Shown one piece after another: positions 3,579 through 53,180 of a stretch of DNA of 60,200 bases; the first letter of the stretch is position 1; every line of letters begins with the position of its first letter. The stretch comes from Candidatus Zambryskiibacteriota bacterium. GTDB lineage: Bacteria > Patescibacteriota > Minisyncoccia > Phycocordibacterales > WO2-35-19. The stretch is taken from the NCBI GenBank assembly GCA_003233455.1, contig QILQ01000011.1:1-60200 (forward strand). Reading direction: 5' to 3'. Both the position numbers and the translations under genes were made by a program. The notes under the pieces are model-generated. The model was given only the letters and a program-made list of their open reading frames with translations. It made no database searches and had not been told where the DNA came from.

Positions 3579-4724
3579 ATGAAAAAAAAGGATAAAAAAA
3601 TAAAACCCAAAGAAAGTCAAAAAGTTTTTGTGGGATTATCTGGAGGAGTGGATAGTGCGGTATCAGCGGCTCTGCTTCAAAAAGAAGGATATGAAGTTAT
3701 CGGAGTTTTTATAAAAGCTTGGACTCCGGCAGGCTATCCTTGCACTTGGAAAGAAGACCGAAGAAGCGCTATGAGAGTAGCCGCTATTTTAAATATTCCT
3801 TTTATTACTTTGGATTTAGAAAAAGAATATAAAAAAGAAGTGGTGGATTATATGATTACCGAGTATAAAAAAGGCAGGACCCCAAATCCAGATGTAATGT
3901 GCAATAAAGAAATAAAGTTTGGATATTTTTTGAAATTCGCTTTAAAAAATGGAGCTGATTTTGTAGCCACAGGACATTATGTAAGAAGCCCAACATCGGA
4001 TATTGGGCTTGCCCAATATCCGATGTTGGGCTACCAACTTCTGGAAGGTTCTGATAAAAACAAAGACCAATCATATTTTCTTTGGACTTTAACTCAAAAA
4101 CAACTCAAACATATTTTATTTCCAATAGGAAATTTACAAAAAATTGAAGTGAGAAAATTAGCGAAAAAATTTAATTTACCCCAAGCGACCAAAAAAGACA
4201 GTCAAGGACTTTGTTTTTTAGGTAAAGTAGATATGAAAGAATTTTTAGCTAGATATATCACATCAAAAAAAGGAAAGGTTTTGAATGAAAAAGAGGAAGT
4301 AATCGGTTATCATAACGGAGCTTTATTTTTTACTATTGGTGAACGACATAGATTTACCATTACTAAAAAAACTACAAAAGAAACTCCTTTATATGTAGTA
4401 GCAAAAGATATTAAAAAAAATACTATTACTGTCGCTCCAAAAATTATTATACCACACTCAAAAAGCCAAGGGGAACCCTTGACATTAAAAGATACAAACT
4501 GGATTTTAGGTGAAATTTCAGATATAAGTAAAAATTTATTTTGCCGTATCAGATATCGCCAAAAAAAAGTTAAATGCAAAATAAATATTTCAAATAATAA
4601 AAATAAAGAAGAAGCGAAAATAATTTTTGATAAACCTCAAGCTGGAGTTTCAACCGGACAATCTTTAGTTTTGTATTATAAAGATATCTGTCTTGGTGGG
4701 GGAATTATTGATAACGTTAATTAA
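3579..4724 (+). CDS. mnmA: tRNA 2-thiouridine(34) synthase MnmA
   Basis: PP-loop VGLSGGVDSAV, ATGHYVR, NKDQSYFL; carries two in-frame palindromic inserts. Confidence 0.92.
   Translation: MKKKDKKIKPKESQKVFVGLSGGVDSAVSAALLQKEGYEVIGVFIKAWTPAGYPCTWKEDRRSAMRVAAILNIPFITLDLEKEYKKEVVDYMITEYKKGRTPNPDVMCNKEIKFGYFLKFALKNGADFVATGHYVRSPTSDIGLAQYPMLGYQLLEGSDKNKDQSYFLWTLTQKQLKHILFPIGNLQKIEVRKLAKKFNLPQATKKDSQGLCFLGKVDMKEFLARYITSKKGKVLNEKEEVIGYHNGALFFTIGERHRFTITKKTTKETPLYVVAKDIKKNTITVAPKIIIPHSKSQGEPLTLKDTNWILGEISDISKNLFCRIRYRQKKVKCKINISNNKNKEEAKIIFDKPQAGVSTGQSLVLYYKDICLGGGIIDNVN
3987..4032. repeat. 46-bp palindrome (two inverted AGCCCAACATCGGATATTGGGCT units) in frame inside mnmA
   Basis: agcccaacatcggatattgggct/tgcccaatatccgatgttgggct; 22-bp arms pair perfectly and only the 2 central nt do not; encodes SPTSDIGLAQYPMLGY in a loop that varies between MnmA homologues. 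Confidence 0.9.
4446..4483. repeat. half copy of the about 60-bp palindromic element, embedded in the mnmA coding sequence
   Basis: attataccaca-ctcaaaaagc-caagggGAAcccttg matches the left arm plus core of the intergenic elements at 7559, 22535 and 31193; encodes IIPHSKSQGEPLTL. Confidence 0.7.
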
Positions 4725-4761
4725 TTTGTTAATAAATCCCTAACCTGTTAAAATTAACTTA

Positions 4762-7558: not shown

Positions 7559-7621
7559 AATTATACCACATTTATTCCTAGGAAGAGGGGAACCCTCTTG
7601 TTTTTGAGGTGTGTTATAATT
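7559..7621. repeat. about 60-bp palindromic element copy A1 (divergent -10-like arms around a GC hairpin)
   Basis: aattataccaca...ggaagagggGAAccctctt-gttttt...tgtgttataatt; arms are inverted repeats with 1 mismatch; lies between divergent genes. Confidence 0.8.
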
Positions 7622-8016: not shown

Positions 8017-9786
8017 ATGATAGCAAACGAACTTAGGAAAAAATATTTGGAATTTTTTGAAAGCAAAGGGCATAAAATAATCCCAAGTGCATCATTAATA
8101 CCGGAAAATGATCCAACAGTGCTTTTTACGACAGCTGGTATGCATCCACTTGTTCCTTATTTAGTGGGTGAAAAACATCCAGCTGGAAATAGATTAGTTG
8201 ATGTTCAAAAATGCATCAGAACCGGAGATATAGAAGAAGTGGGAGATGGCAGTCACCATACTTTTTTTGAGATGCTCGGAAATTGGTCTTTAGGTGATTA
8301 CTTCAAAAAAGAAGCTATTGAGTGGAGTTTTGAATTTTTAACCTCAAAAGAATGGCTTGGTTTAAATAAAGATAGATTGGCTGTCTCCGTCTTTGAAGGA
8401 GATGATGATGCTCCTTTTGATGAAGAAGCATTTGAAATATGGAAAAGTTTGGGAATTCCAGAGAAAAGAATTGCTAAATTACCTAAAAAAAGTAACTGGT
8501 GGGGACCAGCAGGAAAAACAGGACCATGTGGACCAGATACAGAAATGTTTTATTGGACCGGAAACTCAGACAAGATTCCAGAGAGTTTTAATGATGACAA
8601 CAACTTATGGCTTGAAATTTGGAATGATGTTTTTATGCAATACAATAAAATAACTGATGGAAAATATGAAGAGCTTTTGCAAAAAAATGTTGACACAGGC
8701 ATGGGACTAGAGCGAACGCTAGCGGTAATGAATGATTTGAACGACAATTACAAAACAGATATTTTTTGGCCAATTATAGAAAAAATAGAAAATCTCTCTG
8801 ATAAAAAATATGATGATAATCTAAAAGAAATGAGAATAATTGCTGACCACTTAAAAGCAACTACTTTTATTTTGGGAGATGAAAAAGGTATTACTCCTTC
8901 CAACACCGGACAAGGTTATGTTTTAAGGAGACTCATCCGTCGAGCAGTTAGATATGGAAATAAACTTGGATTAAAAAACTTCACTAAAGAAGTAGCCGAA
9001 GTAGTAATAGAAATATATAAAGATGTTTATCCTGAACTTTCAAAAAATAAAGATTCTATTTTTAATAATTTAAAAAAAGAAGAGGAAAAGTTTGAAAAGA
9101 CTTTAGAAAATGGTTTAAGAGAATTTGAAAAAGGAACTGATCCATTTACCCTTTTTACTTCATACGGTTTTCCATTTGAACTAACCAAAGAATTGTCAAA
9201 AGAAAAAGGGATAGAAATTGATGAAAATAAATTCAATGAACAATTAAGAAAACACCAAGAACTTTCTCGTACTTCTGGAGCTGGTATGTTTAAAGGAGGA
9301 CTTTCTGATTCAGGTGAAGAAACTAAAAAACTCCACACAGCTACTCATCTTTTGAGACAAGCGTTAGAAAACATTTTGGGAGAAAAGATAACCCAAAAAG
9401 GAAGCAACATAAATGCAGAACGATTGCGTTTTGATTTTACTTTTGGACGAAAAATGACTGACAAAGAAAAAACAAAAGTAGAAAATTTAGTTAATGAAAA
9501 AATTTCTGAAAAGCTACCTGTCAACAAAGTAATAATGAAAAAAGTTGATGCAGAAAAAAGTGGTGCTGTTCATACTTTTGGAGATAAGTATGGCGATAAG
9601 GTTAGTATTTATTATATAGGAGACTCTCTTGAATCTGCTTGGTCAAAAGAATTTTGTGGCGGACCTCATGTTTCCAATACAAGTGAACTTGCTTCAAAAA
9701 ATGCAACCCAAACAGGAAAATTTAAAATAATAAAGGAGGAAGCAATCTCAGCAGGAGTCCGTCGCATCAAAGCAACATTAACTTAA
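8017..9786 (+). CDS. alaS: alanine--tRNA ligase (short form lacking the C-Ala/DHHA1 tail)
   Basis: FTTAGMHPLVPY, WGPAGKTGPCGPDTEMF, editing-site HTATHLL and CGGPHV; ends shortly after the editing domain. Confidence 0.92.
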   Translation: MIANELRKKYLEFFESKGHKIIPSASLIPENDPTVLFTTAGMHPLVPYLVGEKHPAGNRLVDVQKCIRTGDIEEVGDGSHHTFFEMLGNWSLGDYFKKEAIEWSFEFLTSKEWLGLNKDRLAVSVFEGDDDAPFDEEAFEIWKSLGIPEKRIAKLPKKSNWWGPAGKTGPCGPDTEMFYWTGNSDKIPESFNDDNNLWLEIWNDVFMQYNKITDGKYEELLQKNVDTGMGLERTLAVMNDLNDNYKTDIFWPIIEKIENLSDKKYDDNLKEMRIIADHLKATTFILGDEKGITPSNTGQGYVLRRLIRRAVRYGNKLGLKNFTKEVAEVVIEIYKDVYPELSKNKDSIFNNLKKEEEKFEKTLENGLREFEKGTDPFTLFTSYGFPFELTKELSKEKGIEIDENKFNEQLRKHQELSRTSGAGMFKGGLSDSGEETKKLHTATHLLRQALENILGEKITQKGSNINAERLRFDFTFGRKMTDKEKTKVENLVNEKISEKLPVNKVIMKKVDAEKSGAVHTFGDKYGDKVSIYYIGDSLESAWSKEFCGGPHVSNTSELASKNATQTGKFKIIKEEAISAGVRRIKATLT

Positions 9787-9788
9787 TT

Positions 9789-9811
9789 AGCCCAAAGTCC
9801 GACTTTGGGTT
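9789..9811. terminator. AGCCCAAAGTCCGACTTTGGGTT hairpin (family member) just after the alaS stop
   Basis: 10-bp-stem hairpin 3 nt after the stop, followed by tttaataaaaaaa; same sequence family as 21500 and 52341. Confidence 0.65.
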
Positions 9812-9824: not shown

Positions 9825-10529
9825 ATGCAAAGAAAAAATAATTTCACTGAAGGAGAATTTTATCATCTTTATAACAGAGGAAACAGTAAACAAAATATTT
9901 TTCTTGATAATCAAGACAAAAGAAGATTTATAAAAATGCTGTATCTTTCCAATTCAAAAAAACGTATGAATTTTCGGGAAGATATTGTAAAGAAAAAAAT
10001 AGATGTTTGGGAATTTGATAGAGGAAAATCTATTGTCTCAATTGGTGCCTGGGTACTCATGCCAAACCATTTTCATATTTTTATAACTCCAACATCTAGC
10101 CCTACATCGGATGTTGGGTTAAATAGAGTTAGTTTTTTTATGAAGAAACTTTGCATATCTTATTCAAAGTATTTTAACAAAAAATATAAACGTACAGGCA
10201 GTTTATTTGAGACCAATTTTAAAAGTTCTTTTATTGATTCAGATCGATATTTAAAATACCTTTTTTCTTATATTCATTTAAACCCTGTTAAACTTATTGA
10301 TTCAAAATGGAAAGAAAACGGCATAAAAGATATAAAGAAAACAAATAATTTTCTGGAAAATTATGAATGGAGTAGTTATAAAGATTATTGTGGTGAAAAA
10401 AGAATACAAGAAAAAATTCTTTCAAAAAAAGATTTCCCAAAATATTTTGATTATCCAAAAGTATTTAAAGATGAAATATTTGATTGGTTATTATTTAGCC
10501 CTACATCGGATGTTGGGTATAAAATTTAA
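9825..10529 (+). CDS. IS200/RayT-like HUH-Y1 tyrosine transposase
   Basis: FYHLYNRGN, HUH motif MPNHFHIFI, catalytic-Tyr motif YIHLNPVK; paralogous to 44022..44702. Confidence 0.75.
   Translation: MQRKNNFTEGEFYHLYNRGNSKQNIFLDNQDKRRFIKMLYLSNSKKRMNFREDIVKKKIDVWEFDRGKSIVSIGAWVLMPNHFHIFITPTSSPTSDVGLNRVSFFMKKLCISYSKYFNKKYKRTGSLFETNFKSSFIDSDRYLKYLFSYIHLNPVKLIDSKWKENGIKDIKKTNNFLENYEWSSYKDYCGEKRIQEKILSKKDFPKYFDYPKVFKDEIFDWLLFSPTSDVGYKI
10098..10120. repeat. AGCCCTACATCGGATGTTGGGTT hairpin inside the transposase gene (after the HUH motif)
   Basis: Encodes SPTSDVGL, the same peptide as the mnmA insert. Confidence 0.8.
10497..10519. repeat. AGCCCTACATCGGATGTTGGGTA hairpin at the 3' end of the transposase gene
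   Basis: Direct repeat of 10098-10120 (22 of 23 nt identical; only the last nt differs); encodes the C-terminal SPTSDVGYKI. Confidence 0.8.
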
Positions 10530-10585
10530 TTATTTTTCCACAAGTTTGTTGCATACAAAGTAAAATAAAGGTTTATAATAAAGAT

Positions 10586-11956
10586 ATGCTTAAAATACAA
10601 TTTAGCGATGTTACTCCTCCAGAAAAAAGAACTATTAGAAATATCCCCATTCCTACTGGTGGCAAAAGGAAAACACCGGTTATTAAAAAACCAGAGGAAA
10701 ATTCTGTTTCTGAAATGGAATCAACCGAAAATACGAAAAGCAATAATCCTTACGAATATTACTATCCCAAAAAGAAAAAAATACCGGAACAACATAATAG
10801 TTTAAATAAAACAAGGAAAAAGCAGTGGATATTTGGAATTATCGCTTTATTTTTAATTGGTGTTTTTATGGTAAGTATGATGACTGTATTTGCTTCGGCC
10901 ACTATAAATATTACACCCAAAAGTCAGCAAGTTAATGTGGACATAAAAATAGTTGGAACCAAAAATAAAATAGAAGTAAATGCAGTTAGATATGAAGTTA
11001 TAAAACTTTCAAAAGTAAAAACAGTTTCGGTACCGGCTACAGGAGAAGAAGTTGTAGAATTAAAAGCTTCAGGAAAAATTGTGGTCTATAATAATTTTTC
11101 TTCCAGATCACAAAGGCTTATCATTCGCACCAGATTTGAAAGTCCGAAAGGTTTGATATACAGAATACCAGAGTCAATTGTTGTTCCGGGTAAAACAATT
11201 AAAAATGGAAAGGAAACACCCGGCAGTATAGAAGTGAAAGTCTTTGCCGATGAAGCTGGAGAAAAATATAACATTAAAAAAACCGATTTTACCATCCCCG
11301 GCTTTAAAAATAATGCCAGTCGTTACAAAAATTTTTACGCCAGATCCTCCACTGAAATGATAGGTGGCTTTATGGGCAAAAGAAAGAAATTGATTGAAAG
11401 TGCTAAAAAAGAAGCTTTGCAAAATATTCAATCAGAAGCAGAATTAGCACTTAAAAAAGATTTAAAATCAAAAGTGCCAGAAGAATTGACTTTACTATTC
11501 GGTTCCTTTAAATATGAATCCAAAGAATTACCTCCAAAAGAAAGCGGTTCGTCCGTTATAATAAGTAAAGAAGTTACTGCTTATGTCACTATGTTAAATA
11601 AACAAGATTTATCTAAAGAAATAACAAATAAATATATTTCTAAATCCACAGATTGGTCCAATATCAAACCTATAGTTGAAGATTTTTCTTCTTTAAAAAT
11701 AGTGGATATGTCTAAAGATCCATCAGATGCCAACAAAATAGATTTGCAAATAAAAGGCAAAGTTAAAGTTTGGGCGAATATTGATATAAATACTATAAAT
11801 CAAAAATTATTGGGTGCTCCCAAAAATAGGGTAGCAAAACTTATGAATGAATTTGCCGGAATTTCAAGTATAACCGCAATTATAAGACCTGTTTGGAAAC
11901 AATCTTTTCCTAAAGACCCTTTAAAAATACATGTTCAAACAATCACTAATAAATAG
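10586..11956 (+). CDS. hypothetical membrane-anchored protein
   Basis: 456-codon ORF with a single TM (WIFGIIALFLIGVFMVSMMTVFA); TATAAT lies 6 nt upstream of the ATG. Confidence 0.6.
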   Translation: MLKIQFSDVTPPEKRTIRNIPIPTGGKRKTPVIKKPEENSVSEMESTENTKSNNPYEYYYPKKKKIPEQHNSLNKTRKKQWIFGIIALFLIGVFMVSMMTVFASATINITPKSQQVNVDIKIVGTKNKIEVNAVRYEVIKLSKVKTVSVPATGEEVVELKASGKIVVYNNFSSRSQRLIIRTRFESPKGLIYRIPESIVVPGKTIKNGKETPGSIEVKVFADEAGEKYNIKKTDFTIPGFKNNASRYKNFYARSSTEMIGGFMGKRKKLIESAKKEALQNIQSEAELALKKDLKSKVPEELTLLFGSFKYESKELPPKESGSSVIISKEVTAYVTMLNKQDLSKEITNKYISKSTDWSNIKPIVEDFSSLKIVDMSKDPSDANKIDLQIKGKVKVWANIDINTINQKLLGAPKNRVAKLMNEFAGISSITAIIRPVWKQSFPKDPLKIHVQTITNK

Positions 11957-20593: not shown

Positions 20594-20853
20594 TGAAAAT
20601 ATTTGTAAAAGCTAAAGCTGGGGCAAAAAAAGAGAAAGTAATTCCACCAATTGCAAAACTATGGAAAGATGAAAATAATAAATCCGTTGAAAAGGAGTGG
20701 TTTACTGTTTGGGTTAAAGAACCTCCGATGCAAGGAAGAGCAAATGTAGCTATCTCTAAAGTTTTAGCAAAACATTTCAAAATTTTTCCCTCACAAGTAA
20801 ATTTAATATCTGGATATTCCTCCAAACAAAAAGTATTTGAAATTGATAAATAA
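20593..20853 (+). CDS. DUF167 (YggU-like) protein
   Basis: VWVKEPPMQGRANVAISKVLAKHFKI...VNLISGYSSKQKVFEI matches the DUF167 pattern. Confidence 0.7.
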   Translation: MKIFVKAKAGAKKEKVIPPIAKLWKDENNKSVEKEWFTVWVKEPPMQGRANVAISKVLAKHFKIFPSQVNLISGYSSKQKVFEIDK

Positions 20854-20878
20854 ATATAAAGAGATACAATATCTTTAT

Positions 20879-33961: not shown

Positions 33962-34004
33962 AAATAATTATTAACTAATTTTAATTTAATTTATTTATAA
34001 AATA

Positions 34005-34340: not shown

Positions 34341-34817
34341 CTACTTCGTCGCCAAACTTTTATATTTAGAATAAGCGGTAGTATTTCCCCAACACGAGAT
34401 AGAAGATTTCCAAGGCTTGACTCCATATTTCTCAAAAAGAACTCTGGCGTATGAAGTATTTCCTTTTAAAGTAAAAATATTATAGCCGAATCTAACCGAA
34501 CTTTTATTATGATAATATTCGTTGATTTGCATTACTCCCCTATCTGATTTATTTTGCTCGCCACGAATAGCCTTACCATTAGCGTCATACTGACGAAAAC
34601 GAGATTCGCACCTGGCAATTTCAATCATAATTGGTATGTCAGAAAAATAATTTCTAACATATTCTTCCACTGTTATACTTTTCTTAATTTTACTGATATC
34701 TTTTTTTGGTTGAGATTCCAGAGGTAATACTTGAATAATCGCCTCGGGAACATCGGGAGGTAAAAATGATGCCTTACCAAAACCTGTAATACTTGACGCA
34801 ATCATCATAAACCCCAA
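34341..34817 (-). CDS. lysozyme-like / lytic transglycosylase domain protein
   Basis: IEIARCESRFRQYD...SDRGVMQINEYYH resembles the catalytic-Glu SLT/lysozyme-like motif. Start uncertain (TTG at 34817 or ATG at 34808); the hydrophobic stretch continues upstream. Confidence 0.65.
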   Translation of the reverse strand: MGFMMIASSITGFGKASFLPPDVPEAIIQVLPLESQPKKDISKIKKSITVEEYVRNYFSDIPIMIEIARCESRFRQYDANGKAIRGEQNKSDRGVMQINEYYHNKSSVRFGYNIFTLKGNTSYARVLFEKYGVKPWKSSISCWGNTTAYSKYKSLATK

Positions 34818-35086
34818 AGCGGTAGTTTGAAAAATAAGCCAATTGTTTAATTTTAATTCTTATTTTAATTCTATCTATTCTCCATCTCTTAATTAAAACA
34901 AGTCAAGATATCAGTCAGATAAACTTCAAGCGCGAACCTTAAATTTATTTTTGCAAATAATTTAATAAGTATGCTTGAGCTGAAAAATATCTCTTTAACA
35001 ACAAAATCCAGCATTTACTGGACTCACATATAGTATAGCATTTTTTAATATTGCTGTCAATAAATTTATATATTGGTATATTTATC

Positions 35087-35725
35087 TTAAAACTCCCTAT
35101 ACTTCGGATCCACAATAAAGTTGGCGTAAACGGTTTTGGAAGAGTTTATAAAGATAGGACATTGTCCTTTACCGGAACAAGCTCCGCTCCAACCGACAAA
35201 AACTCTGCCGACAGCGGGAGTGGCGGTTAAAGTAACCCATATATTAGCCTCATAATTATTGGCACAAGTGGGACCGCAAGCTATACCGCTAGGGCTGCTG
35301 GTTATTATCCCCTGCCCCGATTTAATAACATTTAGATTGAAAGATGGAGAAGCCACATTTACAGTAATATGTTTAGTGACTGGACCAGGATTGCAAGCAA
35401 TAGTGTATATTTTGGTACTTGTTAAACTGCCGGTGTTTAGAGAACCGCTACCATTGGGATAACCTCCGATAGTGGCTGGCGGAGTAATGGAACAAGAAGT
35501 GGCTCCCGAATATGACCAACTTAAATTGGTTCCATTGTTAGGATTTGGTAAGTTTGTGTTATTGGCGCTTATAGATACGGTAGCACTAGGTGGAGCTTGA
35601 CAGGATAAATCAGTGCTCCCAACATAATCTTTCCAAGCATTGGTATTAGGATCTTTAACAGTAAACCACCAAGTATAATGCTGACCGGGAGAGTAGTGCT
35701 GATTTGTGCCGTAATACCTCCCGAA
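35087..35725 (-). pseudogene. C-terminal continuation of the same surface protein in another frame (Ig-like segment plus divergent InlB B-repeat-like domain)
   Basis: My translation of the shifted frame is YYGTNQHYSPGQHYTWWFTVKDPNTNAWKDYVGSTDLSCQAPPSATVSISANN...GQGIITSSPSGIACGPTCANNYEANIWVTLTATPAVGRVFVGWSGACSGKGQCPIFINSSKTVYANF. It is open from the TAG at 35726-35728 down to 35087. Confidence 0.65.
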
Positions 35726-37320
35726 CTACAAGAATTTAAAGGCCAACAATAACTATTAGCTCCCGGATTCATCCTCACATAATACGGATTATATCCGCTG
35801 GCTGTCCAGCTGACATTAGCTTGAGTATATGGAGCTGGGCAGGAGCCTGTTAAATTAGTTGGAGTAACAACTCCTCCGGTTACCGTTACATTACTCCAAC
35901 TGCCACAATTGTTGTTTTCGTTTGATTCAGTAATAACTCCTGTATTGGTAGGTGAAGTTTTATCAGCACAAGCCCTAACAGAATATGTTCCAGTGGAGGT
36001 AAAGGTATAAGTGGGAGAAGTAGCGGTATTATTCGCTCCGGCAGCTAATATTGACATTGGAGTGGCAGTCAGATTAGTTATAGAACCTCCTCCTCCGCTA
36101 GCGGTAGCCACTTGAAAGAAATTTGAGAAACTGCTTCCGGTGGAACCCATTCCTTGATTTGCAATAATTGAGCTAAATGTTTGAGCGACATTCACCACAG
36201 CGATATTTGGTGAAGAATTGGCTGCGGTTAGATCTGGGGAAGGTGAATTAACAGAGCTAATAATTAACGATGACGAATCAAAACCGCTTAACACTCCGCT
36301 TGTTCCAGTCACTTTTATTATATTTGAAGTTGGAGGCGAAGAAGCGGTATTCGTTACGGCAAGAATAAGTGTTGAATAACTATTCGCCGGAACAAAAGTA
36401 GTAGAAGGTAAACTACAGTTCGCACTTGAAGGACAACCTGAAATTGCAAGCGAAACATTGCCGGAAAATCCTCCTACAGAATTAACCATCACCCCATAAG
36501 TAGCCGCATCGCCTTGATATATAGTTTGCATTATCGGTAACATTGAGATGTTAAAATTTGAAGTGGTACAATCTGCATTGGTAGTACATCCCGGAGTACA
36601 AGACCCCCCTAGATGAAAACCTCTTTCTACTGGCGGTACTTGTTGGATGCAGGAGTTTCCTGAACAAACATTATTATAAGTTGGACCTATTTGATAACAC
36701 CTGCCACCTATGATAGGTGGCGACCCATATCTCTGACATTTACCTGTACACAAATCATAGGTTTGAAAATTACAATATTGGTCTCCCAATGGACGACCTA
36801 TTTGTGCTGGGGGGCAATTCCCTCCTGTAATACACAGTGTATCACCGTTAGAATAAGTATAACATTTACCCGGAGTGGTACCGTTCAAACAAGTTGTTAA
36901 ATTTGGCTTGCCGGTACAGAATTTGTTGACAGTAACTGTTACATTAGCTAAATTACCCGTTTCCACCCAAGAATTATCCACATTGCGAATTGTGTAAGTA
37001 TATGTTGAAGGTGCTGACCCAGTAGTTAAATTCCAGTCAGTCGCACTGTCGTTTGGGCTTTGGTTGCTCCAAAATACTCCATTTTTATAAAGCTTGACTA
37101 TATTATTTGAATTAGATGTCCAACTTATAGAGGGACTACAAGGTTCAATACAAGATTGTGGGTTAGCATTGATACTGGCTTGAGGTGTTTGAGCTAAAGC
37201 TATTTTTGTTTCAAAAGTTCCATATAATAAAATAGTTCCTAAAATTAAAACAAAAAATCCAAGAAACAATAAAATTTTTCCTATTTTCATTTTCCAAAAC
37301 ATTTTTTTTAAGGTAAGCAT
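35569..37320 (-). CDS. large secreted Cys-rich surface protein, N-terminal 583 codons (CARDB-like domain); frame is lost near 35715-35725
   Basis: Signal/TM MKIGKILLFLGFFVLILGTILLYG, Cys-rich block, CARDB-like DLTAANSSPNIAVVNVAQTF...NQGMGST...ESNENNNC. The last about 50 codons (ITAQISTTLPVSIILGG...) look like out-of-frame read-through. Confidence 0.7.
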   Translation of the reverse strand: MLTLKKMFWKMKIGKILLFLGFFVLILGTILLYGTFETKIALAQTPQASINANPQSCIEPCSPSISWTSNSNNIVKLYKNGVFWSNQSPNDSATDWNLTTGSAPSTYTYTIRNVDNSWVETGNLANVTVTVNKFCTGKPNLTTCLNGTTPGKCYTYSNGDTLCITGGNCPPAQIGRPLGDQYCNFQTYDLCTGKCQRYGSPPIIGGRCYQIGPTYNNVCSGNSCIQQVPPVERGFHLGGSCTPGCTTNADCTTSNFNISMLPIMQTIYQGDAATYGVMVNSVGGFSGNVSLAISGCPSSANCSLPSTTFVPANSYSTLILAVTNTASSPPTSNIIKVTGTSGVLSGFDSSSLIISSVNSPSPDLTAANSSPNIAVVNVAQTFSSIIANQGMGSTGSSFSNFFQVATASGGGGSITNLTATPMSILAAGANNTATSPTYTFTSTGTYSVRACADKTSPTNTGVITESNENNNCGSWSNVTVTGGVVTPTNLTGSCPAPYTQANVSWTASGYNPYYVRMNPGANSYCWPLNSCSSGGITAQISTTLPVSIILGGLLLKILIPMLGKIMLGALIYPVKLHLVLPYL

Positions 37321-37480
37321 ACTTAAATTTTATCTTTAACGACCTTTAACTTACATTTTTAAGTTTCTATTTTATTATACAATATATAATTCGTTATAAC
37401 ATATATAAAAATGTTAATAACTTTATAAATCAAAAATAATAGTAAAACCACCATATGTGTGTATACATTACCACTGACAG

Positions 37481-37509
37481 TTGACAAAAAAATGAATTTA
37501 TAATATAGT
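37481..37509 (+). promoter_or_regulatory. near-consensus sigma-70 promoter TTGACA-17-TATAGT, bracketed by the inverted repeat actgaca/tgtcagt
   Basis: TTGACA at 37481-37486 and TATAGT at 37504-37509, spacer 17 nt; lies just upstream of the GC-rich ORF. Confidence 0.5.
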
Positions 37510-37542
37510 GTCAGTTAGATGGGTCCAAGGAGGGCTCTATAT

Positions 37543-38442
37543 ATGTTCTCTCGAAAAATCACCTATTTGGCGATGTTGGTCATTCTGCTGTCATGGCCGA
37601 TCATGGCAGTATCCCGTGGTGGCGAACACCCTGTCATCAACAGTGGCGCTTGCACAGCCACGACCCAAAACCTCCCTCGCGGAGGGGAGGGGTGGATTAT
37701 CCGGTTTACCCAAACCGGTAACACCGTGCTTCGCGCACGCGATCTCGGGTTTCCGCCGTTCCACCTGAACGACGGCGGATACGCACCGGTCCTTAACTCG
37801 GCTCATCACCGGCCGGTGTTTACCTGCACACCAAACGAACTTTACGTTCTGATTTACCAGACGGAAAGGATGTTTGGCGGAAATGAAAGTTGGAGGGAAA
37901 TCAGAACCCAACTTTACCGAAAAGGTATTTGGGATGGGTCATCCCAAGCGGAGTTGGTGTATCAGACACCGCTCTCAACCGAGCGGATTGGCGACGAAAA
38001 CTTCGCCATCCCACTGACAAACTCTGATGTCCGGATCGGTCGCGCTTACGCGCTTACCGGTCTTGTCGCTCAGAAAAATCGTGCTGTCCTCTTTGGGCAG
38101 TTCGAGATTCTGGATGACCAACAGGCGCGTACCTCATACGCCGCCCTCGACCTTTCTGTCAACGGTCCCGCGACTCTCACTTTTGAGTCCGGACCCGCTG
38201 ACATTGCGCAGTCCGAATCGGTCTGCGTAACCCTGAACGAGCTGTTTTTTGTCCGACGGATTGGTAGATTATACACAACCTATCAGGTTGACAGCAAAGG
38301 GTTTATCACTCCAAAGCTGTTCAACTGGTCGCCTGTCCGCGTGGAATGCGGACCCGGCAACGCGACCATAATCCTCTCCTCTAGAACATCCGGTGGGAAG
38401 AGACGGCGCATCGGCATACCGTCAACAGGGCGCGGGAGGTGA
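37543..38442 (+). CDS. secreted hypothetical protein encoded by a strongly GC-rich (foreign-looking) segment
   Basis: Open frame of about 300 codons in GC-rich DNA, AGGAGG at 37528-37533 is 9 nt before the ATG at 37543, signal-peptide-like MFSRKITYLAMLVILLSWPIMAVSRG; no family recognised. Confidence 0.6.
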   Translation: MFSRKITYLAMLVILLSWPIMAVSRGGEHPVINSGACTATTQNLPRGGEGWIIRFTQTGNTVLRARDLGFPPFHLNDGGYAPVLNSAHHRPVFTCTPNELYVLIYQTERMFGGNESWREIRTQLYRKGIWDGSSQAELVYQTPLSTERIGDENFAIPLTNSDVRIGRAYALTGLVAQKNRAVLFGQFEILDDQQARTSYAALDLSVNGPATLTFESGPADIAQSESVCVTLNELFFVRRIGRLYTTYQVDSKGFITPKLFNWSPVRVECGPGNATIILSSRTSGGKRRRIGIPSTGRGR

Positions 38443-38563
38443 GCCATGATCTCCCCGCCCAAAAAAAGAGGCGAGGCCAAACTCGCCCAAGAGAACTCAC
38501 TTTTGCGGTCGTTTTGTATCCCAACAATCGGCCGTTTCTTTTTTATAAAAAAATGATAGAGAT

Positions 38564-38600
38564 AGAGGGTTCCCCTCTTACTTTTGAGGTGTGTTGTAAT
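38564..38600. repeat. palindromic element copy A4 (core plus right arm only)
   Basis: agagggTTCccctct-tactttt-gagg-tgtgttgtaat; sits at the 3' boundary of the GC-rich segment. Confidence 0.7.
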
Positions 38601-39550: not shown

Positions 39551-39575
39551 AGGAGGACCTAGCTAACGTCCTCCT
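39551..39575 (-). promoter_or_regulatory. perfect 8-bp hairpin AGGAGGAC-N9-GTCCTCCT in the leader of the small acidic ORF
   Basis: aggaggac ctagctaac gtcctcct, 22 nt upstream of the start codon; function unknown. Confidence 0.35.
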
Positions 39576-43967: not shown

Positions 43968-44008
43968 AGGAAGAGGGTTCCCCTCTTCCTTTTGACTTGT
44001 GGTATAAT
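43968..44008. repeat. palindromic element copy A6 (upstream flank of the second Y1 transposase)
   Basis: aggaagagggTTCccctcttcct-tttgact-tgtggtataat. Confidence 0.8.
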
Positions 44009-44021: not shown

Positions 44022-44702
44022 ATGAAAAACAGAGATTATAAAAAATTTGAAAAAGGTGGTATTTATCATGTTTATAACAGAGGTGTTGGCAAAATGAAAA
44101 TATTTGAAGACAAAAAAGATTTTAGAGTATTTTTATATAGATTAAAAGAAAATTTATTCCCAGAAAAAAATAAAATTAAAAATTCTATCCCGAAAAAGAA
44201 AATTTATAATAGAAAATTACTTCCGCCAAAATCTTTTAATCTTATTTGCTACTGTTTAATGCCAAATCATTTTCATTTACTGATGCAACAGAAAACAGAT
44301 CTGCCTATAAGCAAAATAATCTCAAAAATATGTACAGGATATTCAATGTATTTCAATAAAAAAAATAACCGTGTTGGCTCATTATTTCAAGATGCATTTA
44401 AAGCTGTAAGAATTGAAAACAATGAACAATTATTATGGACATCATTATATATTCATGAAAATCCTGTAAAATCTGGAATAATCAAAAAACTTGAAGATTA
44501 TGAATGGAGCAGTTTTTTGGATTACACCAAATCAAACCCAAATACTTTATGTAAAAAAGATATATTACTTGGTCAATTTATTTCACCTAAATCATATTTG
44601 AAATATTTCAAAAATCCGGAAGAAAATAAAAAGGCTCAAAATCAAATGATTGGTTTTCAAGATTTATTTATTGATGAAGATTTCTTAGAAAATTTCTTTT
44701 AA
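44022..44702 (+). CDS. IS200/RayT-like HUH-Y1 tyrosine transposase (second copy)
   Basis: IYHVYNRGV, MPNHFHLLM (HUH), LYIHENPVK (catalytic Tyr). ATG at 44022 chosen; the longer track ORF from 43809 overlaps the permease gene. Confidence 0.75.
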   Translation: MKNRDYKKFEKGGIYHVYNRGVGKMKIFEDKKDFRVFLYRLKENLFPEKNKIKNSIPKKKIYNRKLLPPKSFNLICYCLMPNHFHLLMQQKTDLPISKIISKICTGYSMYFNKKNNRVGSLFQDAFKAVRIENNEQLLWTSLYIHENPVKSGIIKKLEDYEWSSFLDYTKSNPNTLCKKDILLGQFISPKSYLKYFKNPEENKKAQNQMIGFQDLFIDEDFLENFF

Positions 44703-44705: not shown

Positions 44706-44766
44706 ATTACAACACAATTTTTTTTAGGAAGAGGGGAACCCTCTTCCTTTTTACTTGTGGTATAAT
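44706..44766. repeat. about 60-bp palindromic element copy A7 (downstream flank of the second Y1 transposase)
   Basis: attacaacaca-atttttttt-aggaagagggGAAccctcttcct-ttttact-tgtggtataat; stem and right arm match A6 but the loop is flipped. Confidence 0.85.
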
Positions 44767-48976: not shown

Positions 48977-50415
48977 TGGATATTTATTTAAGCAATACTT
49001 TAACCGGTAAAAAAGAAAAATTCAAGCCGATAAATAAAAAAGAAGTTGGTATTTATTCTTGCGGGCCGACTGTTTATTGGAATCAACATATAGGTCATAT
49101 GTATGCTTATGTCCAGTGGGATTGTTTGGTTCGTTCTTTAAATTATCTGGGTTATAAAACAAAATGGGTTATGAACTTAACCGATGTTGGACATTTGACC
49201 GGAGACAATGAAGGCAATGCCGATACCGGCGAGGACAAAATGGAAAAAGGAGCTAAAAGAGAAGGTCTTTCTGTTTGGGAAATTGCCGATAAATATATTT
49301 TGCAATTCAAGGAAAGTTTGCGAGCTTTGAATATTAAAGAACCAGATATTTTAAGCAGAGCCACCAAACATATTGAAGAACAAATTGATTTAATAAAAAA
49401 AATTGAAAATAACGGTTTTGCCTACAAAACTAAAACGGGATTGGTTTTTGACACTGCTAAATTTCCCAAATACGCGAAGTTTGCTCACCTTAATTTAAAA
49501 GATCAAAAAGCCGGCAGTCGGGTGGAAGTGGATCTGGAGAAAAAAAAGCCTTGGGATTTTTTGCTCTGGATTACAAACCAACCGAATCATATTATGAAAT
49601 GGTCATCACCTTGGGGAGTCGGTTTTCCGGGTTGGCATATAGAATGCACCGCTATGTCCACTAAATATCTCGGTCAAACTTTTGACATTCATACTGGTGG
49701 CAAAGAACACATCGCCGTTCATCATACTAATGAAATCGCTCAAGCTTTTGGAGCTTTCAATCATCAATCGGCAAATTATTGGCTCCACAATGAATGGCTT
49801 TCGTTTAACGGTAAAAAAATAAGTAAATCTCTCGGAAATTCAATTTTAGTTTCCGATTTAAAAAATAAAGGTTTTGACCCATTATCTTTGAGATATTTAA
49901 TTATGACCAGTCATTATAAAACAGGTTTAAATTTCACTTGGGAAAGTTTAAAAGGGGCTCAAACTGCTTATTTCAAATTGAAAGAAATTTTTGTCAATCT
50001 AAAAAATGAAGTATCAAGGGAAGTGTCAAGGGTTCCCCTTGACACTTTTAACAAATACAAAAAAGAATTCGCACAAGCTTTGGCGGATGATTTGAATGTA
50101 GCTAAAGCCATCGGATTACTCTGGCAAGTTGTAAAATTAAAAGATATAAACGCCAAAACAAAATATGAATTACTTTTAGATTTTGATAAAGTTCTCGGTT
50201 TAAGACTTTCTGAAACAGATTTACCAACGATTGAATTAACCAATGAAGAAATACCGACAAAAGTTTTAGAATTAAAAAAAGAAAGAGACACAGCCAGAAA
50301 AGAAAAAAATTGGCAAAAAAGCGATGAATTAAGAGAGCAAATTAAAAAAGAAGGTTATATTTTAGAAGATAAAAATAATGAAAGCGTTCTCAAAAAAATA
50401 TCTTCATCAATATAA
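48973..50415 (+). CDS. cysS: cysteine--tRNA ligase
   Basis: CGPTVYWNQHIGHMYAY (HIGH), KISKSLGN (KMSKS); ATGA overlap with the corA stop suggests a start at 48973 (track start is GTG at 48967). Confidence 0.93.
   Translation: MMDIYLSNTLTGKKEKFKPINKKEVGIYSCGPTVYWNQHIGHMYAYVQWDCLVRSLNYLGYKTKWVMNLTDVGHLTGDNEGNADTGEDKMEKGAKREGLSVWEIADKYILQFKESLRALNIKEPDILSRATKHIEEQIDLIKKIENNGFAYKTKTGLVFDTAKFPKYAKFAHLNLKDQKAGSRVEVDLEKKKPWDFLLWITNQPNHIMKWSSPWGVGFPGWHIECTAMSTKYLGQTFDIHTGGKEHIAVHHTNEIAQAFGAFNHQSANYWLHNEWLSFNGKKISKSLGNSILVSDLKNKGFDPLSLRYLIMTSHYKTGLNFTWESLKGAQTAYFKLKEIFVNLKNEVSREVSRVPLDTFNKYKKEFAQALADDLNVAKAIGLLWQVVKLKDINAKTKYELLLDFDKVLGLRLSETDLPTIELTNEEIPTKVLELKKERDTARKEKNWQKSDELREQIKKEGYILEDKNNESVLKKISSSI
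50023..50045. repeat. GTGTCAAGGG-TTC-CCCTTGACAC hairpin inserted in frame in cysS
   Basis: Preceded by the partial duplicate gtatcaaggga (50011-50021); encodes EVSREVSRVPLDTF. Confidence 0.8.
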
Positions 50416-50434: not shown

Positions 50435-50800
50435 CACCTCACCCCATTTAATCTTTAGTATAATATTAAGCATATCGCTTCCCCTCTCCTTACTAAGGAG
50501 AGGGGCTAGGGGTGAGGTGGTAAAATAATGGGTAGAGGGGTGAGGGTGATAAATAAAATTTTATTTTATTTAGTTTTTATTCAAAAACCTCACCCCATAT
50601 AAATTTATTACAAAGTTTGAGTTTCTCACTTCCCCTCTCCTTACTAAGGAGAGGGGCTAGGGGTGAGGTGGTAAAATAATGGGTAGAGGGAGGGGGGGTG
50701 AAGTGGTAAATAAAAGAGTAGGGGTGAGGTGGTAAAAAGAAGAGTAGGGGTGAAAGTGAAATAGTAGGTAGGGGGGGTTAGGGGTGAGGTGGTAAAATGA
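50435..50800 (+). repeat. G-rich repeat region: two 151-bp tandem units with nested hairpins, plus degenerate GGGGTGAGGTGGTAAA copies
   Basis: An identical 62-nt block occurs at 50478-50539 and 50629-50690. cacctcacccc (50435-45) pairs with ggggtgaggtg (50509-19) around the hairpin cccctctcctta-c-taaggagagggg (50481-50505). The GGGGTGAGGTGG motif recurs at about 50720 and 50780, with a variant at about 50747. Confidence 0.85.
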
Positions 50801-51184: not shown

Positions 51185-51299
51185 TATGTTAATATAATAT
51201 CATGCTTTGGAGTCCAAAAGCCCGAAAAATAATAAAAATACTGTGGTTCATAATAGCCATAATTTTGATATTTGGAATGGTTCTTTTGTATATGCCATT

Positions 51300-53180
51300 T
51301 TAATTCGGCTTCATTATTTTTATAAAGACATCTTGAGGAATTCTGATTTTCCCTCTTTTTTTCATTTTCTTTTTACCTTTTTTTTGTTTCTCTCGCAATT
51401 TCATTTTACGAGTAATATCGCCCCCATACATATGTTGAGTAACATCTTTGCGAAAAGCGGAAACGGTCCGCGAGGCTATAATTTTACCCGCCGCTTTGGT
51501 CTGGATTTTAAGTTCAAACATTTGACGAGGTAAAAGTTTTTTAAGTTTGTCGGCTATGGCTTCAGCTTCTTTTTTAACAATTCTTTTTGAAACCACTCTG
51601 GCTAAAGCTGGTTCTTCTTCTCCGTTGATTAAAACGCTTAATTTAGTCACATTAGCTTCCCGCATTGCCGTTTTTTCGTATGAAAGAGAAGCATAACCTT
51701 GAGAAATACTTTTGAGCTCATTAAAAAAATCTCGCATCAATTCCCGCAATGGCATAGAAGCGTTTATTTTTGTTTTGTCATCGCCAAAACTTTCAGTAAC
51801 GCTAACCTCAGCCTCATGTTCATAAAGCAAGGGTAAAAGATTGCCCGCGTATTTAGAAAGAACTATAATATTTATCTTAACCCAAGGCTCTTCCACTTTT
51901 GCCAAAAGTTCATCTTCGGGAAAAAAAGAGGACGAGTAAATTTTTTCTTGCAGATTTTTTGCTTCTTTTTTATATTTTATATTATAAGTGATGGAAGGTT
52001 GAGTAATTATCAAAGAAAGATTAAATTCCCTTTTTAATCTCTCGGCTATAATTTCAAGATGGAGCATTCCTAAAAAACCGCACCTAAAACCCTTACCTAA
52101 AACACTTGAAACCTCTTCTTCATAATGAAGAGAGGAGTCGGTTAATTTAAGTCTGGCTAAAGATTGTCTCAGTAATACTAAATCATTTTGGTCTTCGGGA
52201 AAAATAGAAGCCCAAACAACCGGCTTCGGCACACTATAACCCGACAATGCAACAGCGATTTCTTTTTCTTTGCCGATAGTATCCCCAACCGAAACGATAC
52301 CCGGAGTTTTAATACCGGTTACAATATACCCTATTTCTCCCGCCCAAAGTCCAACTTTGGGCTTTTCCTCTGGAGTAAAAATACCGACTTCCAAAGAAAT
52401 AAACTTTTGGTCGGCTATTCTAAAAATCAAATTTTCTCTGGCAGACACTTTTCCTTTCATTATCCTGACAAAAACAATAATACCTCTATGAATTGAATAT
52501 TTAAAATCAAAAACCAAAGCTTGGAAAGGTTCTTGTTGCCAAGGGTCACCCTTGAACTGCCCCTGCCCCAAAGGGTGACCCTTGGCAACATTAGGCCCGG
52601 GGATTTTTTCTACAATGGCGATTAAAAGATTTTCTACTCCAAATCCGGTTTTGCCAGAAGTCTCTATTATATCTTCTTCTTTACAACCTATGAGCGAAAT
52701 TATTTCTTCTTTTATTTCATCCACTCTAGCCAAAGGAGAATCCACTTTGCTCAAAGCCGGTATAATAACTAAATCTTGTTCTTTAGCCATAGCTAAAACC
52801 GAGAGAGTCTGAGCTTCCACACCTTGAGTAGCATCAACCAAAAGGACTACCCCCTCCACCGCCCTGAGAGCTCTGGAAACTTCATAAGAAAAATCAATAT
52901 GACCTGGAGTATCTATCAGATTCAGAACATACTGTTCTGAATCTGAAATTTTCAATTTAGAATTTTCAATTTTCAATTTTGGGGACCAAACCATTCGGAC
53001 CGGTTGCATTTTTATGGTAATACCCCGCTCTCTTTCAAGTTCCATTGAATCCAAAACTTGCTCCTTCATTTTGCGTTTTTCAATGGCACCGGTTAACTCA
53101 AGCATCCTATCGGCCAGTGTAGATTTGCCGTGGTCTATATGAGCTATAATTCCAAAATTTCTAATATTGATATTTTCCAT
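51300..53180 (-). CDS. lepA: elongation factor 4 (LepA)
   Basis: IRNFGIIAHIDHGKSTLADR, NLIDTPGH, LepA C-terminal domain; carries at least three palindromic segments. Confidence 0.95.
   Translation of the reverse strand: MENINIRNFGIIAHIDHGKSTLADRMLELTGAIEKRKMKEQVLDSMELERERGITIKMQPVRMVWSPKLKIENSKLKISDSEQYVLNLIDTPGHIDFSYEVSRALRAVEGVVLLVDATQGVEAQTLSVLAMAKEQDLVIIPALSKVDSPLARVDEIKEEIISLIGCKEEDIIETSGKTGFGVENLLIAIVEKIPGPNVAKGHPLGQGQFKGDPWQQEPFQALVFDFKYSIHRGIIVFVRIMKGKVSARENLIFRIADQKFISLEVGIFTPEEKPKVGLWAGEIGYIVTGIKTPGIVSVGDTIGKEKEIAVALSGYSVPKPVVWASIFPEDQNDLVLLRQSLARLKLTDSSLHYEEEVSSVLGKGFRCGFLGMLHLEIIAERLKREFNLSLIITQPSITYNIKYKKEAKNLQEKIYSSSFFPEDELLAKVEEPWVKINIIVLSKYAGNLLPLLYEHEAEVSVTESFGDDKTKINASMPLRELMRDFFNELKSISQGYASLSYEKTAMREANVTKLSVLINGEEEPALARVVSKRIVKKEAEAIADKLKKLLPRQMFELKIQTKAAGKIIASRTVSAFRKDVTQHMYGGDITRKMKLREKQKKGKKKMKKRGKIRIPQDVFIKIMKPN
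52341..52363. repeat. (C)GCCCAAAGTCCAACTTTGGGCT hairpin in frame in lepA
   Basis: Same family as 21500 and 9789; read on the minus strand as KPKVGLWA. Confidence 0.85.
52535..52587. repeat. 53-bp palindrome in lepA: 18-bp perfect inverted arms ttgccaagggtcaccctt / aagggtgacccttggcaa, 17-nt spacer
   Basis: Each arm itself contains an AAGGG-TCA/TGA-CCCTT mini-hairpin; encodes the extra loop NVAKGHPLGQGQFKGDPWQQ. Confidence 0.85.
52919..52943. repeat. 25-bp palindrome gattcagaac-atact-gttctgaatc in lepA, next to an aattttc tandem tract
   Basis: 10-bp perfect arms. One arm encodes conserved VLNL (upstream of DTPGH) and the other encodes non-conserved DSEQ. The adjacent KLKIENSKLKI looks like extra sequence. 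Confidence 0.6.

Follow-up and report, generated by a model that had tools for sequence, protein, structure and literature searches.

Hairpins and genes of the window

The DNA analysed here, referred to as the window, is a 60-kb stretch (60,200 nt) of one genome (contig QILQ01000011.1), to which all window counts below apply. Judged by its homologues, the source organism belongs to the Paceibacterota/Parcubacteria, near Candidatus Zambryskibacteria, the nearest LepA proteins being 77-78% identical. The window contains a family of 23-nt hairpins, designated F1, with two types of palindromic centre (variant 1, AAAGTCCRACTTT; variant 2, ACATCGGATRT). The F1 hairpins are found in and around RAYT-1, a homologue of the Y1 HUH transposases that go by the name of RAYTs (for REP-associated tyrosine transposase; REP, repetitive extragenic palindromic sequence), and also in frame within housekeeping genes. 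The genes concerned, of which mnmA, alaS, pif1 and lepA were assigned by Pfam/NCBIfam, and the seven F1 copies are listed in order of position.

3579-4724: mnmA
3987-4009, plus strand: F1 hairpin of variant 2 (AGCCCAACATCGGATATTGGGCT), which mnmA reads in frame as SPTSDIGL, within the variable loop that separates HYVR from LLEGSDKNKDQSYF
4010-4032, minus strand: inverted F1 partner of the 3987 copy; the pair (3985-4034; MnmA aa 137-152) is a REPIN-like doublet
8017-9786: alaS
9789-9811, plus strand: F1 hairpin, variant 1 (AGCCCAAAGTCCGACTTTGGGTT), intergenic, 5' flanking REP of RAYT-1, followed by TTTTAAT
9825-10529, plus strand: RAYT-1, RAYT-like Y1 HUH transposase homologue of 234 aa (NHFHI ... 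YIHLNPVK), single copy, between alaS and a 456-aa gene
10098-10120, plus strand: F1 hairpin, variant 2, in frame in RAYT-1 just past the HUH motif (SPTSDVGL)
10497-10519, plus strand: F1 hairpin, variant 2, 3' flanking REP of RAYT-1, read as the last 11 codons of the gene (SPTSDVGYKI and stop)
20837-22522: Pif1-type helicase gene (pif1)
21500-21522, plus strand: F1 hairpin, variant 1 (AGCCCAAAGTCCAACTTTGGGCT), in frame in pif1 (SPKSNFGL, aa 222-229)
51300-53180, minus strand: lepA
52341-52363, minus strand: F1 hairpin of variant 1, read in frame by lepA as KPKVGLWA, in opposite orientation and frame

An initial annotation, made from the sequence alone, had reported seven copies with two palindromic centres, placed in mnmA, after alaS, in a Y1 transposase gene, in a helicase gene and in lepA, and all of this is confirmed. 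The pattern AGCCCWA-N9-TWGGGYT, with at most one mismatch, occurs at seven sites (3987, 4010, 9789, 10098, 10497, 21500 and 52341), against a mean of 0.14 and a maximum of 2 in 100 dinucleotide-preserving shuffles; with no mismatch it occurs at two sites, against 0.00 expected. The 23-nt unit has a stem of about 10 bp (9-13 bp) and a loop of 3 nt, and as single-stranded DNA the copies fold better than shuffled sequences (z-scores between -2.7 and -6.4). In mnmA, the two abutting inverted copies together give a single 21-bp hairpin of -25.7 kcal/mol (z = -9), and a T.T mismatch is conserved in the RAYT-associated copies. The 9789 copy lies 2 nt past the alaS stop and 14 nt ahead of the RAYT-1 start. 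Five of the seven copies, in contrast to the extragenic location of REPs, are within open reading frames (ORFs), and one overlaps an ORF end. Variant 1 is free of stop codons in all six frames. The peptides encoded by F1 are SPTSDIGL and AQYPMLG in MnmA, SPTSDVGL inside and SPTSDVGY at the C-terminus of RAYT-1, SPKSNFGL in Pif1 and KPKVGLWA in LepA; the in-frame copies in conserved genes, with SPTSDIGL, SPTSDVGL, SPKSNFGL and KPKVGLWA, had likewise been described in the initial annotation.

In genome contigs of GTDB representatives, among which the window genome is not included, the exact variant-1 hairpin gave nine single and unrelated matches (Shewanella, Roseivirga and others); the F1 family is lineage-specific. 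In metagenome contigs the degenerate pattern was found on nine contigs, of which L101 and L105 resemble RAYT loci, while L106 and L011 are one contig. The window gave no match when scanned for Rfam families and tRNAs. An assembly artefact is rejected, because the same hairpins occur at orthologous sites of independent assemblies. F1 is thus a confirmed repeat family, and its copies are not orphan hairpins.

The RAYT-1 gene and its locus

RAYT-1 and a second RAYT-like gene of the window, RAYT-2, have Y1_Tnp and the NCBIfam REP-associated tyrosine transposase family as their sole family matches. The HUH motif of RAYT-1, NHFHI, occupies residues 81-85, and both NHFHI and YIHLNPVK are invariant in 30 homologues. 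The homologues have a conserved N-terminal block, YHLYNRGNSKQ. With regard to the NP(L/V)(R/K)xG motif, RAYT-1 and its clade have NPVKLI or NPIKLI, without the Gly, and RAYT-2 has NPVKSG, a full match. Homologues of RAYT-1 number 5,291 at E <= 1e-10. A relative is encoded by at least 550 species representatives in GTDB, every one of them annotated within the Patescibacteria or Paceibacterota lineages. A search of the RAYT-1 alignment profile against PDB sequences gave no match even at E = 10.

The order of genes around RAYT-1 is conserved among relatives (alaS, RAYT, a gene of 456/480 aa, infA, rpsM), with RAYT proteins about 70-84% identical. The RAYT protein of L010/L011 is 84% identical to RAYT-1 and lies in the neighbourhood yceG-mnmA-...-alaS-RAYT-469 aa-infA-rpsM-rpsK-rpsD-rpoA, as in the window, and the same alaS-RAYT-infA neighbourhood is seen in L012 and L108-L110. 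Therefore, RAYT-1 is vertically inherited at a fixed locus and is not a hopping insertion sequence (IS). As a separate observation, a Pif1-type helicase gene (8200-9657) stands directly upstream of the RAYT-like gene (10001-10684) in the relative L024; the pif1 gene of the window, which carries an F1 copy, is 10 kb away from RAYT-1. A functional link between the helicase and the Y1 enzyme is conceivable.

Flanking and internal hairpins in homologous loci

A total of 67 loci homologous to the RAYT-1 locus were scanned for hairpins. Nearly every gene has one and the same GC-rich hairpin on its 5' side and on its 3' side, the loop often being inverted (e.g. TCTTG versus CAAGA), and the hairpin sequence differs from genome to genome. 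This is the classical REP-RAYT layout, extending across the RAYT homologues of at least 550 Paceibacterota species. In relatives, a copy in inverted orientation occupies the place equivalent to 9789, and the 3' copy follows the stop codon of the gene. In L010 the 3' hairpin starts inside the stop codon (GTG TAG CCCTACATCGGATGTTGGGTT), where TAG overlaps its first two bases, so that it is extragenic there; the C-terminal SPTSDVGYKI of RAYT-1 is therefore a read-through into the 3' flanking repeat.

A third copy, in frame inside the gene, was found in 22 of the 67 loci (21 after removal of L011, a duplicate of L010), 35-45 nt downstream of the base with which the NHFH codons begin. Identity between the internal copies and the flanking ones averages 88% within a locus (n = 39), compared with 54% for flanking copies of other loci (n = 387). 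Meanwhile, the peptides that they encode are wholly unlike between genomes (SPTSDVGL, PKALPLA, TEARLPF, PKDGLLG, PAGNPVTG, SPRSDLGE, HKSDLW and SPRQGLGL). It follows that what is conserved is a DNA element and not a peptide. Among 19 distinct internal hairpins, a set gathered by hairpin search, pairing in the 11 stem columns reaches 89%, with 31 types of pair, against 31-53% when the partner is shifted. On a neighbour-joining tree all genes with an internal hairpin fall into one clade, together with two members in which no copy is detectable. The sequences thus point to one ancient acquisition of the internal copy, which was then retained for long and went on being homogenised with its flanking counterparts. 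The initial annotation had listed two copies inside the Y1 transposase gene; they are present, but rather than being accidental they form, with the copy downstream of alaS, part of a clade-wide 5', internal and 3' architecture. The annotation did not connect the hairpins with the transposase as a REP/REPIN-RAYT system.

Hairpins within pif1, lepA and mnmA

Alignment of MnmA, LepA and helicase orthologues, a check proposed in the initial annotation, shows that orthologues without the hairpin have different peptides at the same place. Most of the approximately 120 pif1 orthologues encode 545-547 aa. Compared with the hairpin-free state (...TRFNKKAE-FEPTKLY), the hairpin state (SPKSDFGL) is just two residues longer. 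The pif1 copy is common to related species at the orthologous site, with changes that preserve the palindrome, and is absent in others: the window has AGCCCAAAGTCCAACTTTGGGCT, L096 AGCCCAAAGTCCGACTTTGGGCT, L098 AGCCCGAAGTCCGACTTCGGGCT and L095 AGCCCAACATTGGATGTTGGGTT (variant 2). In L098 an A:T pair has become G:C by compensatory changes, neither of which alters the encoded residue. The pif1 copy and the RAYT-1 5' copy of the window are both CCCAAAG..CTTTGGG, with the internal and 3' RAYT-1 copies being variant 2. All four copies on contig k141_464682 (L098/L109), one in pif1 and three associated with the RAYT gene, are CCCGAAG..CTTCGGG, and in the L010/L095 genome both the pif1 and the RAYT copies are variant 2 (CCCAACAT..ATGTTGGG). 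Since the pif1 copy has the same variant as the RAYT hairpin of its genome in these three genomes, the family evolves in concert with the transposase gene.

The F1 site in lepA (site c, aa 273-280) shows no length difference in 28 orthologues, and the sequence of the T. thermophilus EF4 structure differs by one residue. Its codons are AAG CCC AAA GTT GGA CTT TGG GCG in the window and ACA CCC AAA GAA TCT TTG CAG GCG in the nearest orthologue, L094; 11 of the 24 bases differ, yet 22 of 23 are identical to the pif1 copy. The mnmA loop between HYVR and LLEGSDKNKDQSYF differs in every orthologue: it has 17 aa in the window (with the doublet), 13 in L012, 11 in L022, 39 in L010, where it carries another hairpin (CTCCCTCTCCTTACCAAGGAGAGGGGG), and 9 in E. 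coli (2DER). In addition, L022 mnmA has an F1-like hairpin at a different site, anchored on conserved Pro-Lys codons, which reads SPKSDLGL where the window has APKIIIPH.

The net change in length, in codons, is 0 in lepA, 0 in L022 mnmA, +2 in pif1, about +4-6 in window mnmA (46-nt doublet) and +6 in cysS, which carries a 27-nt hairpin of another family. At the junctions lie pre-existing CCN AAR codons or GACAC. A change in length far below the size of the element, combined with microhomology at the junctions, argues for a templated patch that replaced host codons rather than for simple insertion. The resemblance to Rickettsia palindromic elements (RPEs), which colonise ORFs, had been suggested in the initial annotation, and it is apt for the in-frame habit; the copies are, however, not clean insertions, and host codons appear to have been replaced in lepA, pif1 and mnmA.

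A second RAYT-like gene and its hairpins

A distinct hairpin family, F2, accompanies the second RAYT-like gene; neither is listed in the initial annotation.

44022-44702, plus strand: RAYT-2, second RAYT-like gene (NHFHLL ... YIHENPVKSG)
43968-43990: F2 hairpin, AGGAAGAGGG-TTC-CCCTCTTCCT, 5' flank of RAYT-2
44726-44748: F2 hairpin whose loop is inverted (GAA), on the 3' side of RAYT-2
7580-7602: dispersed F2 copy, intergenic
22553-22575: dispersed F2 copy, intergenic, past the pif1 stop
31211-31233: dispersed F2 copy, intergenic
38560-38582: dispersed F2 copy, intergenic

RAYT-2 scores 38.3 bits with Y1_Tnp, above the cut-off. Its sole PDB match, a weak one, is E. coli TnpA-REP (4ER8), in which HMH and YIYINPVKHG align with NHFHLL and YIHENPVKSG. 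All six F2 copies are intergenic in a window that is 91% coding, with a chance of about 4e-7 when sites are treated as independent. Each stands in the middle of a palindromic module some 70 nt long, ATTATACCACA..AAA-[GAGGG-TTC-CCCTC hairpin]-TTT..TGTGGTATAAT, which in sequence looks like a bidirectional terminator between outward-facing extended -10 promoter boxes.

Comparison with known systems

REPs and REPINs, the latter being REP doublets, number from tens to hundreds of copies per genome; seven F1 and six F2 copies lie in the 60 kb of the window. To our knowledge, there is no direct demonstration of how they are copied in any organism, E. coli included. The closest known system to the one described here is REP/REPIN-RAYT. 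As in RAYTs, the window genes have HUH and Tyr motifs, flanking REPs (9789/10497; 43968/44726, with inverted loops) and, for RAYT-1, a vertically inherited single copy that co-evolves with its hairpin; as in REPs and REPINs, the repeat is an imperfect GC-rich palindrome of 20-40 nt, with an inverted doublet that forms a long hairpin. A RAYT ORF flanked by two REPs, typically in inverted orientation, is the defining layout, and a conserved Thr is found near the RAYT N-terminus (Nunvar 2010, PMC2817692). With the systems of Proteobacteria (E. coli yafM/TnpA-REP, Pseudomonas and Stenotrophomonas; PMC2817692, Bertels & Rainey 2011, PMC5581495) the present one shares a single-copy, vertical Y1 HUH/Tyr gene between GC-rich palindromes, co-evolution of hairpin and gene, inverted doublets (REPINs), more than one RAYT-REP pair per genome and, in RAYT-2, NPVKxG. 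It differs from them in its phylum, which belongs to the Candidate Phyla Radiation (CPR), in scores below that of curated RAYTs, in lacking the GTAG head and the conserved N-terminal Thr, in the mostly intragenic location of F1, in a clade-conserved cognate hairpin within the transposase ORF and in apparent length-neutral replacement.

REPs with a GTAG or CGTC tetranucleotide head were described by Di Nocera et al. (2013, PMC3733652), with intragenic examples in Opitutus terrae, Rickettsia conorii (RPE-4/6), Thauera and others. The intragenic units, single or paired, occupy genes for helicases, tRNA synthetases and repair proteins, where they are in frame and add 8-30 residues, and are described as insertions that 'decorate' proteins; REPs overlapping RAYT gene ends were also reported (PMC3733652). 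Since in-frame intragenic REPs have been published, the phenomenon itself is not new. F1 resembles these elements in being short in-frame monomers or dimers within genes and in overlapping a RAYT gene end, but it is unrelated in sequence and host phylum, and neither a copy in the RAYT catalytic domain nor concerted evolution at orthologous sites is mentioned in the portions of that paper on which we draw (PMC3733652).

Like RPE-1, F1 is an in-frame intragenic palindrome in a reduced genome. RPE-1 is about 100-150 bp long and adds a peptide segment, and we know of no transposase associated with it; F1, in contrast, is 23-46 nt and has an associated transposase; the likeness is one of in-frame intragenic habit. 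RPE-1 (Ogata et al. 2000, cited in PMC3733652) is selfish DNA of palindromic form which a reduced genome tolerates in frame within functional protein-coding genes. The Y1_Tnp domain is also shared with IS200/IS605 (IS608 TnpA), in which the Y1 HUH enzyme recognises folded subterminal hairpins on single strands; those are, however, multi-copy mobile ISs with a smaller TnpA and often TnpB, whereas here the gene is fixed and the hairpins alone are dispersed.

Among the top-ranked papers of a literature search we found none that combined RAYT or REPIN with CPR, in line with the initial annotation, whose author knew of no such description for a CPR-like lineage. REP-RAYT in CPR, a clade-conserved hairpin inside a RAYT gene, and the evidence for patch replacement and for concerted evolution at orthologous sites appear to be new.

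Proposed origin and spread of the F1 hairpins

F1 is associated with a RAYT-like gene, has a flanking, internal and dispersed architecture, evolves in concert and occupies coding sequence almost without change in length. On these grounds we consider it probable that the F1 hairpins are the cognate REP/REPIN-type repeats of RAYT-1, a vertically inherited, single-copy, RAYT-like Y1 transposase gene in a Paceibacteria (CPR) genome, and that they spread in the following manner. Y1 HUH enzymes, including TnpA-REP, recognise a folded hairpin on single-stranded DNA and nick and rejoin the DNA beside it (PMC2817692; see also PMC3479197). By analogy with E. coli TnpA-REP, the RAYT-like enzyme would bind the folded single-stranded hairpin and nick and rejoin DNA next to it, and its action would drive copying of the hairpin both to new sites and over old copies, with homogenisation as the outcome. 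Because the genome is about 91% coding, most landing sites would be expected to fall in genes, and the survivors would be those events that are in frame, introduce no stop codon and affect tolerant, variable surface segments. Since the length of the hosts is nearly unchanged, such events may be templated replacements of short patches, with microhomology (Pro-Lys codons, CCN AAR) as the anchor, and not additions of 23-24 nt. The overwriting agent may be the RAYT-like enzyme, or else template switching or gene conversion between copies. The intergenic copy downstream of alaS probably doubles as a transcription terminator, and the internal copy of RAYT-1, a conserved cis site, might, as a speculation, be autoregulatory or a processing site.

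A broader proposal is that a clade of Paceibacteria RAYT-like genes keeps its own target hairpin in frame after the HUH motif, and that REP-type hairpins spread and homogenise by length-neutral, microhomology-anchored overwriting of host codons, essential genes included, instead of by insertion. This we put forward tentatively, as a possibility with somewhat less than an even chance. If it is true, overwriting would be a distinct mode of REP/REPIN propagation, and the internal copy might be a self-regulatory site of the transposase.

Several other explanations have to be weighed. Each intragenic copy might be a plain RPE-like insertion, a cut-and-paste or copy-and-paste of 23-24 nt into a surface loop that was followed by deletions in the loop and is now a neutral passenger. 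The sites are indeed variable regions where indels are common, and mnmA, lepA at sites a and b, and cysS are longer than some orthologues. However, site c of lepA is constant in length despite its nearly identical copy, L022 mnmA is unchanged and pif1 has gained just two residues, so that an exactly compensating deletion would be needed three times over; moreover, neutral passengers would not track the RAYT variant of their genome. We therefore regard plain insertion as unlikely. That the palindrome arose as a by-product, either of selection on a peptide S-P-x-S-D-x-G-L or of quasi-palindrome correction in place, would agree with the shared frame (SPxSDxGL) in mnmA, RAYT-1 and pif1 and with a singleton hairpin in a dacA-like gene that arose by substitutions alone on a conserved PEGDS motif. 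Yet the same 23-mer is also intergenic, in opposite orientation and in other frames (KPKVGLWA, AQYPMLG), the internal hairpins of RAYT genes encode unrelated peptides while matching the flanking DNA, and the lepA copy is 11/24 bases away from the nearest orthologue while matching a distant copy at 22/23. Contradicted by the varied frames and orientations, by the internal-hairpin peptides and by the lepA codon comparison, both forms of this explanation were rejected as exceedingly improbable.

Host selection might alternatively maintain the hairpins as functional elements (terminators, mRNA stabilisers or sites for a domesticated DNA- or RNA-binding protein) without propagation by a transposase. 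In agreement with this, RAYTs are considered domesticated, the 9789 copy has a GC stem and a T-run right after alaS, the F2 copies lie in terminator/promoter-like intergenic modules, and the palindrome has long been kept with compensatory changes inside pif1 and RAYT-1. The intragenic copies, on the other hand, lack T-runs and stand at unrelated positions of unrelated genes, and members of the same family occur at different sites of orthologues (mnmA of the window versus L022; the lepA inserts), which indicates mobility. A simple terminator and promoter scan around RAYT-1 did not call the flanking hairpins as terminators, because there were too few T in the 8-base window of the tool. Host function alone is thus quite unlikely in our assessment. 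As for an autonomous IS of the IS200/IS605 type, in which the 9789 and 10497 hairpins would be the subterminal ends, left and right respectively, and the remaining copies solo ends or MITE-like derivatives (MITE, miniature inverted-repeat transposable element), it would account for the Y1_Tnp homology and for subterminal hairpins on both sides of the gene. But the gene occupies the same syntenic chromosomal site in species with about 70-84% protein identity, it is not multi-copy, no tnpB is present, the proteins have 226-234 aa and a RAYT-type NPVK motif, and the two Y1 genes of the window differ, each with its own hairpin. A tblastn-type motif scan of the window found one gene of RAYT-1 type and one distinct RAYT-2 gene, and hence no multi-copy whole element as in IS200/IS605. 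An autonomous IS is accordingly very unlikely.

A number of observations weigh against F1 being a REP/REPIN-type repeat of RAYT-1. RAYT-1 remains below the cut-offs of both families, with 21.9 bits for Pfam Y1_Tnp (gathering cut-off 23) and 43.8 bits for NCBIfam REP_Tyr_transpos (NF047646; cut-off 80), and RAYT-2 scores 63.8 bits with the latter, also below 80. No invariant N-terminal Thr, equivalence being by sequence position, was found in the first 40 residues of the alignment of 30 homologues, and the AlphaFold model of RAYT-1 from a 30-sequence alignment (mean pLDDT, predicted local distance difference test, of 55; HUH region below 50) is too poor for a test of the fold. None of the seven window F1 copies has a GTAG or CGTC head at either foot; YTAG (tTAG or cTAG) is present at four of the seven, and GTAG in one relative, where it is formed with the stop codon. 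The two flanking copies of RAYT-1 differ in the window, the 5' copy being variant 1 and the 3' copy variant 2, and dispersed copies within 10 kb on either side of most related loci are rare (0-1 per locus). Furthermore, concerted evolution with this pattern would also result from conversion free of transposase, through template switching or recombination, and pif1 may also fit recurrent insertion into a hot spot rather than overwriting.

The REP/REPIN-RAYT interpretation would extend REP-RAYT systems to the Candidate Phyla Radiation, with a RAYT clade that has a conserved cis hairpin in its own ORF. CPR genomes with almost no intergenic space force repeats into genes, where alignments of orthologues give single-codon resolution of each event. 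The near-zero change in length, the anchoring on existing CCN AAR codons and the variants shared between orthologous-site copies and the RAYT hairpins of their genomes make the conversion or overwriting model directly testable and offer a handle on how REP sequences spread. In addition, hairpin inserts account for some of the otherwise puzzling differences in length that conserved CPR proteins, such as LepA, show.

Other hairpin families and local features

Beyond F1 and F2, the window contains at least three more GC-rich hairpin families, some of them in frame (in cysS and at two further lepA sites). One of these, F3, has the form AAGTGTCAAGGG-NNN-CCCTTGACACTT.

24036-24062: F3 twin hairpin, intergenic, past the stop codon that ends a W/Y-type class-I tRNA synthetase gene
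50021-50047, plus strand: F3 hairpin, AAGTGTCAAGGG-TTC-CCCTTGACACTT, in frame in cysS (EVSRVPLDTF), +6 codons relative to the L092 orthologue
52535-52590, minus strand: two CCAAGGGTSACCCTTGG hairpins as an inverted doublet, which lepA reads in frame (AKGHPLGQGQFKGDPWQ)

The CCAAGGGTSACCCTTGG doublet is missing from many lepA orthologues, and a related peptide occurs at two different positions in the orthologue P0016. Hairpin-type inserts at four or five hot spots are the reason why LepA varies between 589 and 646 aa among close relatives. Two other features of lepA were observed. At 52914-52948 (minus strand, aa 78-89) there is a 16-bp hairpin, whose right arm consists of the universally conserved VLNLI codons of the G domain and whose left arm (ISDSE) is their reverse complement, i.e. 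an inverted duplication of adjacent coding sequence. At 52950-53000 an AT-rich insert, SPKLKIENSKLKISDSEQ, shares 48 of 51 nt with L094 and is better conserved than the synonymous sites beside it, and other orthologues have different palindromic inserts (NPKSEIRNFEFDASDLEF...) there.

In cysS, at 49996-50047, a near-perfect tandem copy of the F3 left arm stands just ahead of the hairpin (GAAGTATCAAGG GAAGTGTCAAGG, peptide EVSR-EVSR); it could be a target-site mimic, an integration duplication or part of the element. The region between cysS and a DivIC-like gene (50437-50690) contains a perfect direct repeat of 62 nt (50478-50539 and 50629-50690), which has no Rfam match. It holds the hairpin CCCCTCTCCTTACTAAGGAGAGGGG and then CTAGGGGTGAGGTGG, with the complementary CCTCACCCCAT about 40 nt upstream of each copy, resulting in nested palindromes. 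The CCCCTCTCCTTACTAAGGAGAGGGG hairpin is also found in frame in L010 mnmA, and a fragment of it in L094 lepA.

The hairpin AAACCGGAAGGGGATTCCGGTTT at 27177-27199, in the D-Ala-D-Ala carboxypeptidase-like (dacA-like) gene at 26814-27815, is a singleton that belongs to none of the repeat families seen, and it was set aside. It shows no length change relative to the L095 orthologue, arose through a few substitutions around the conserved PEGDS codons and may be a quasi-palindrome extended in place. Isolated GC-rich intergenic hairpins were seen at 59442-59467 (CCCCCCCGATCGTAAGGTCGGGGGGG) and 39551-39575 (AGGAGGACCTAGCTAACGTCCTCCT). Finally, gene orientation flips from plus to minus near 34.3 kb, the cumulative GC skew peaks at 36-38 kb, and the G+C content at 36-40 kb is 0.37-0.41, against about 0.32; the region of the skew peak and orientation switch (about 34000-38500) could be a replication terminus or origin.

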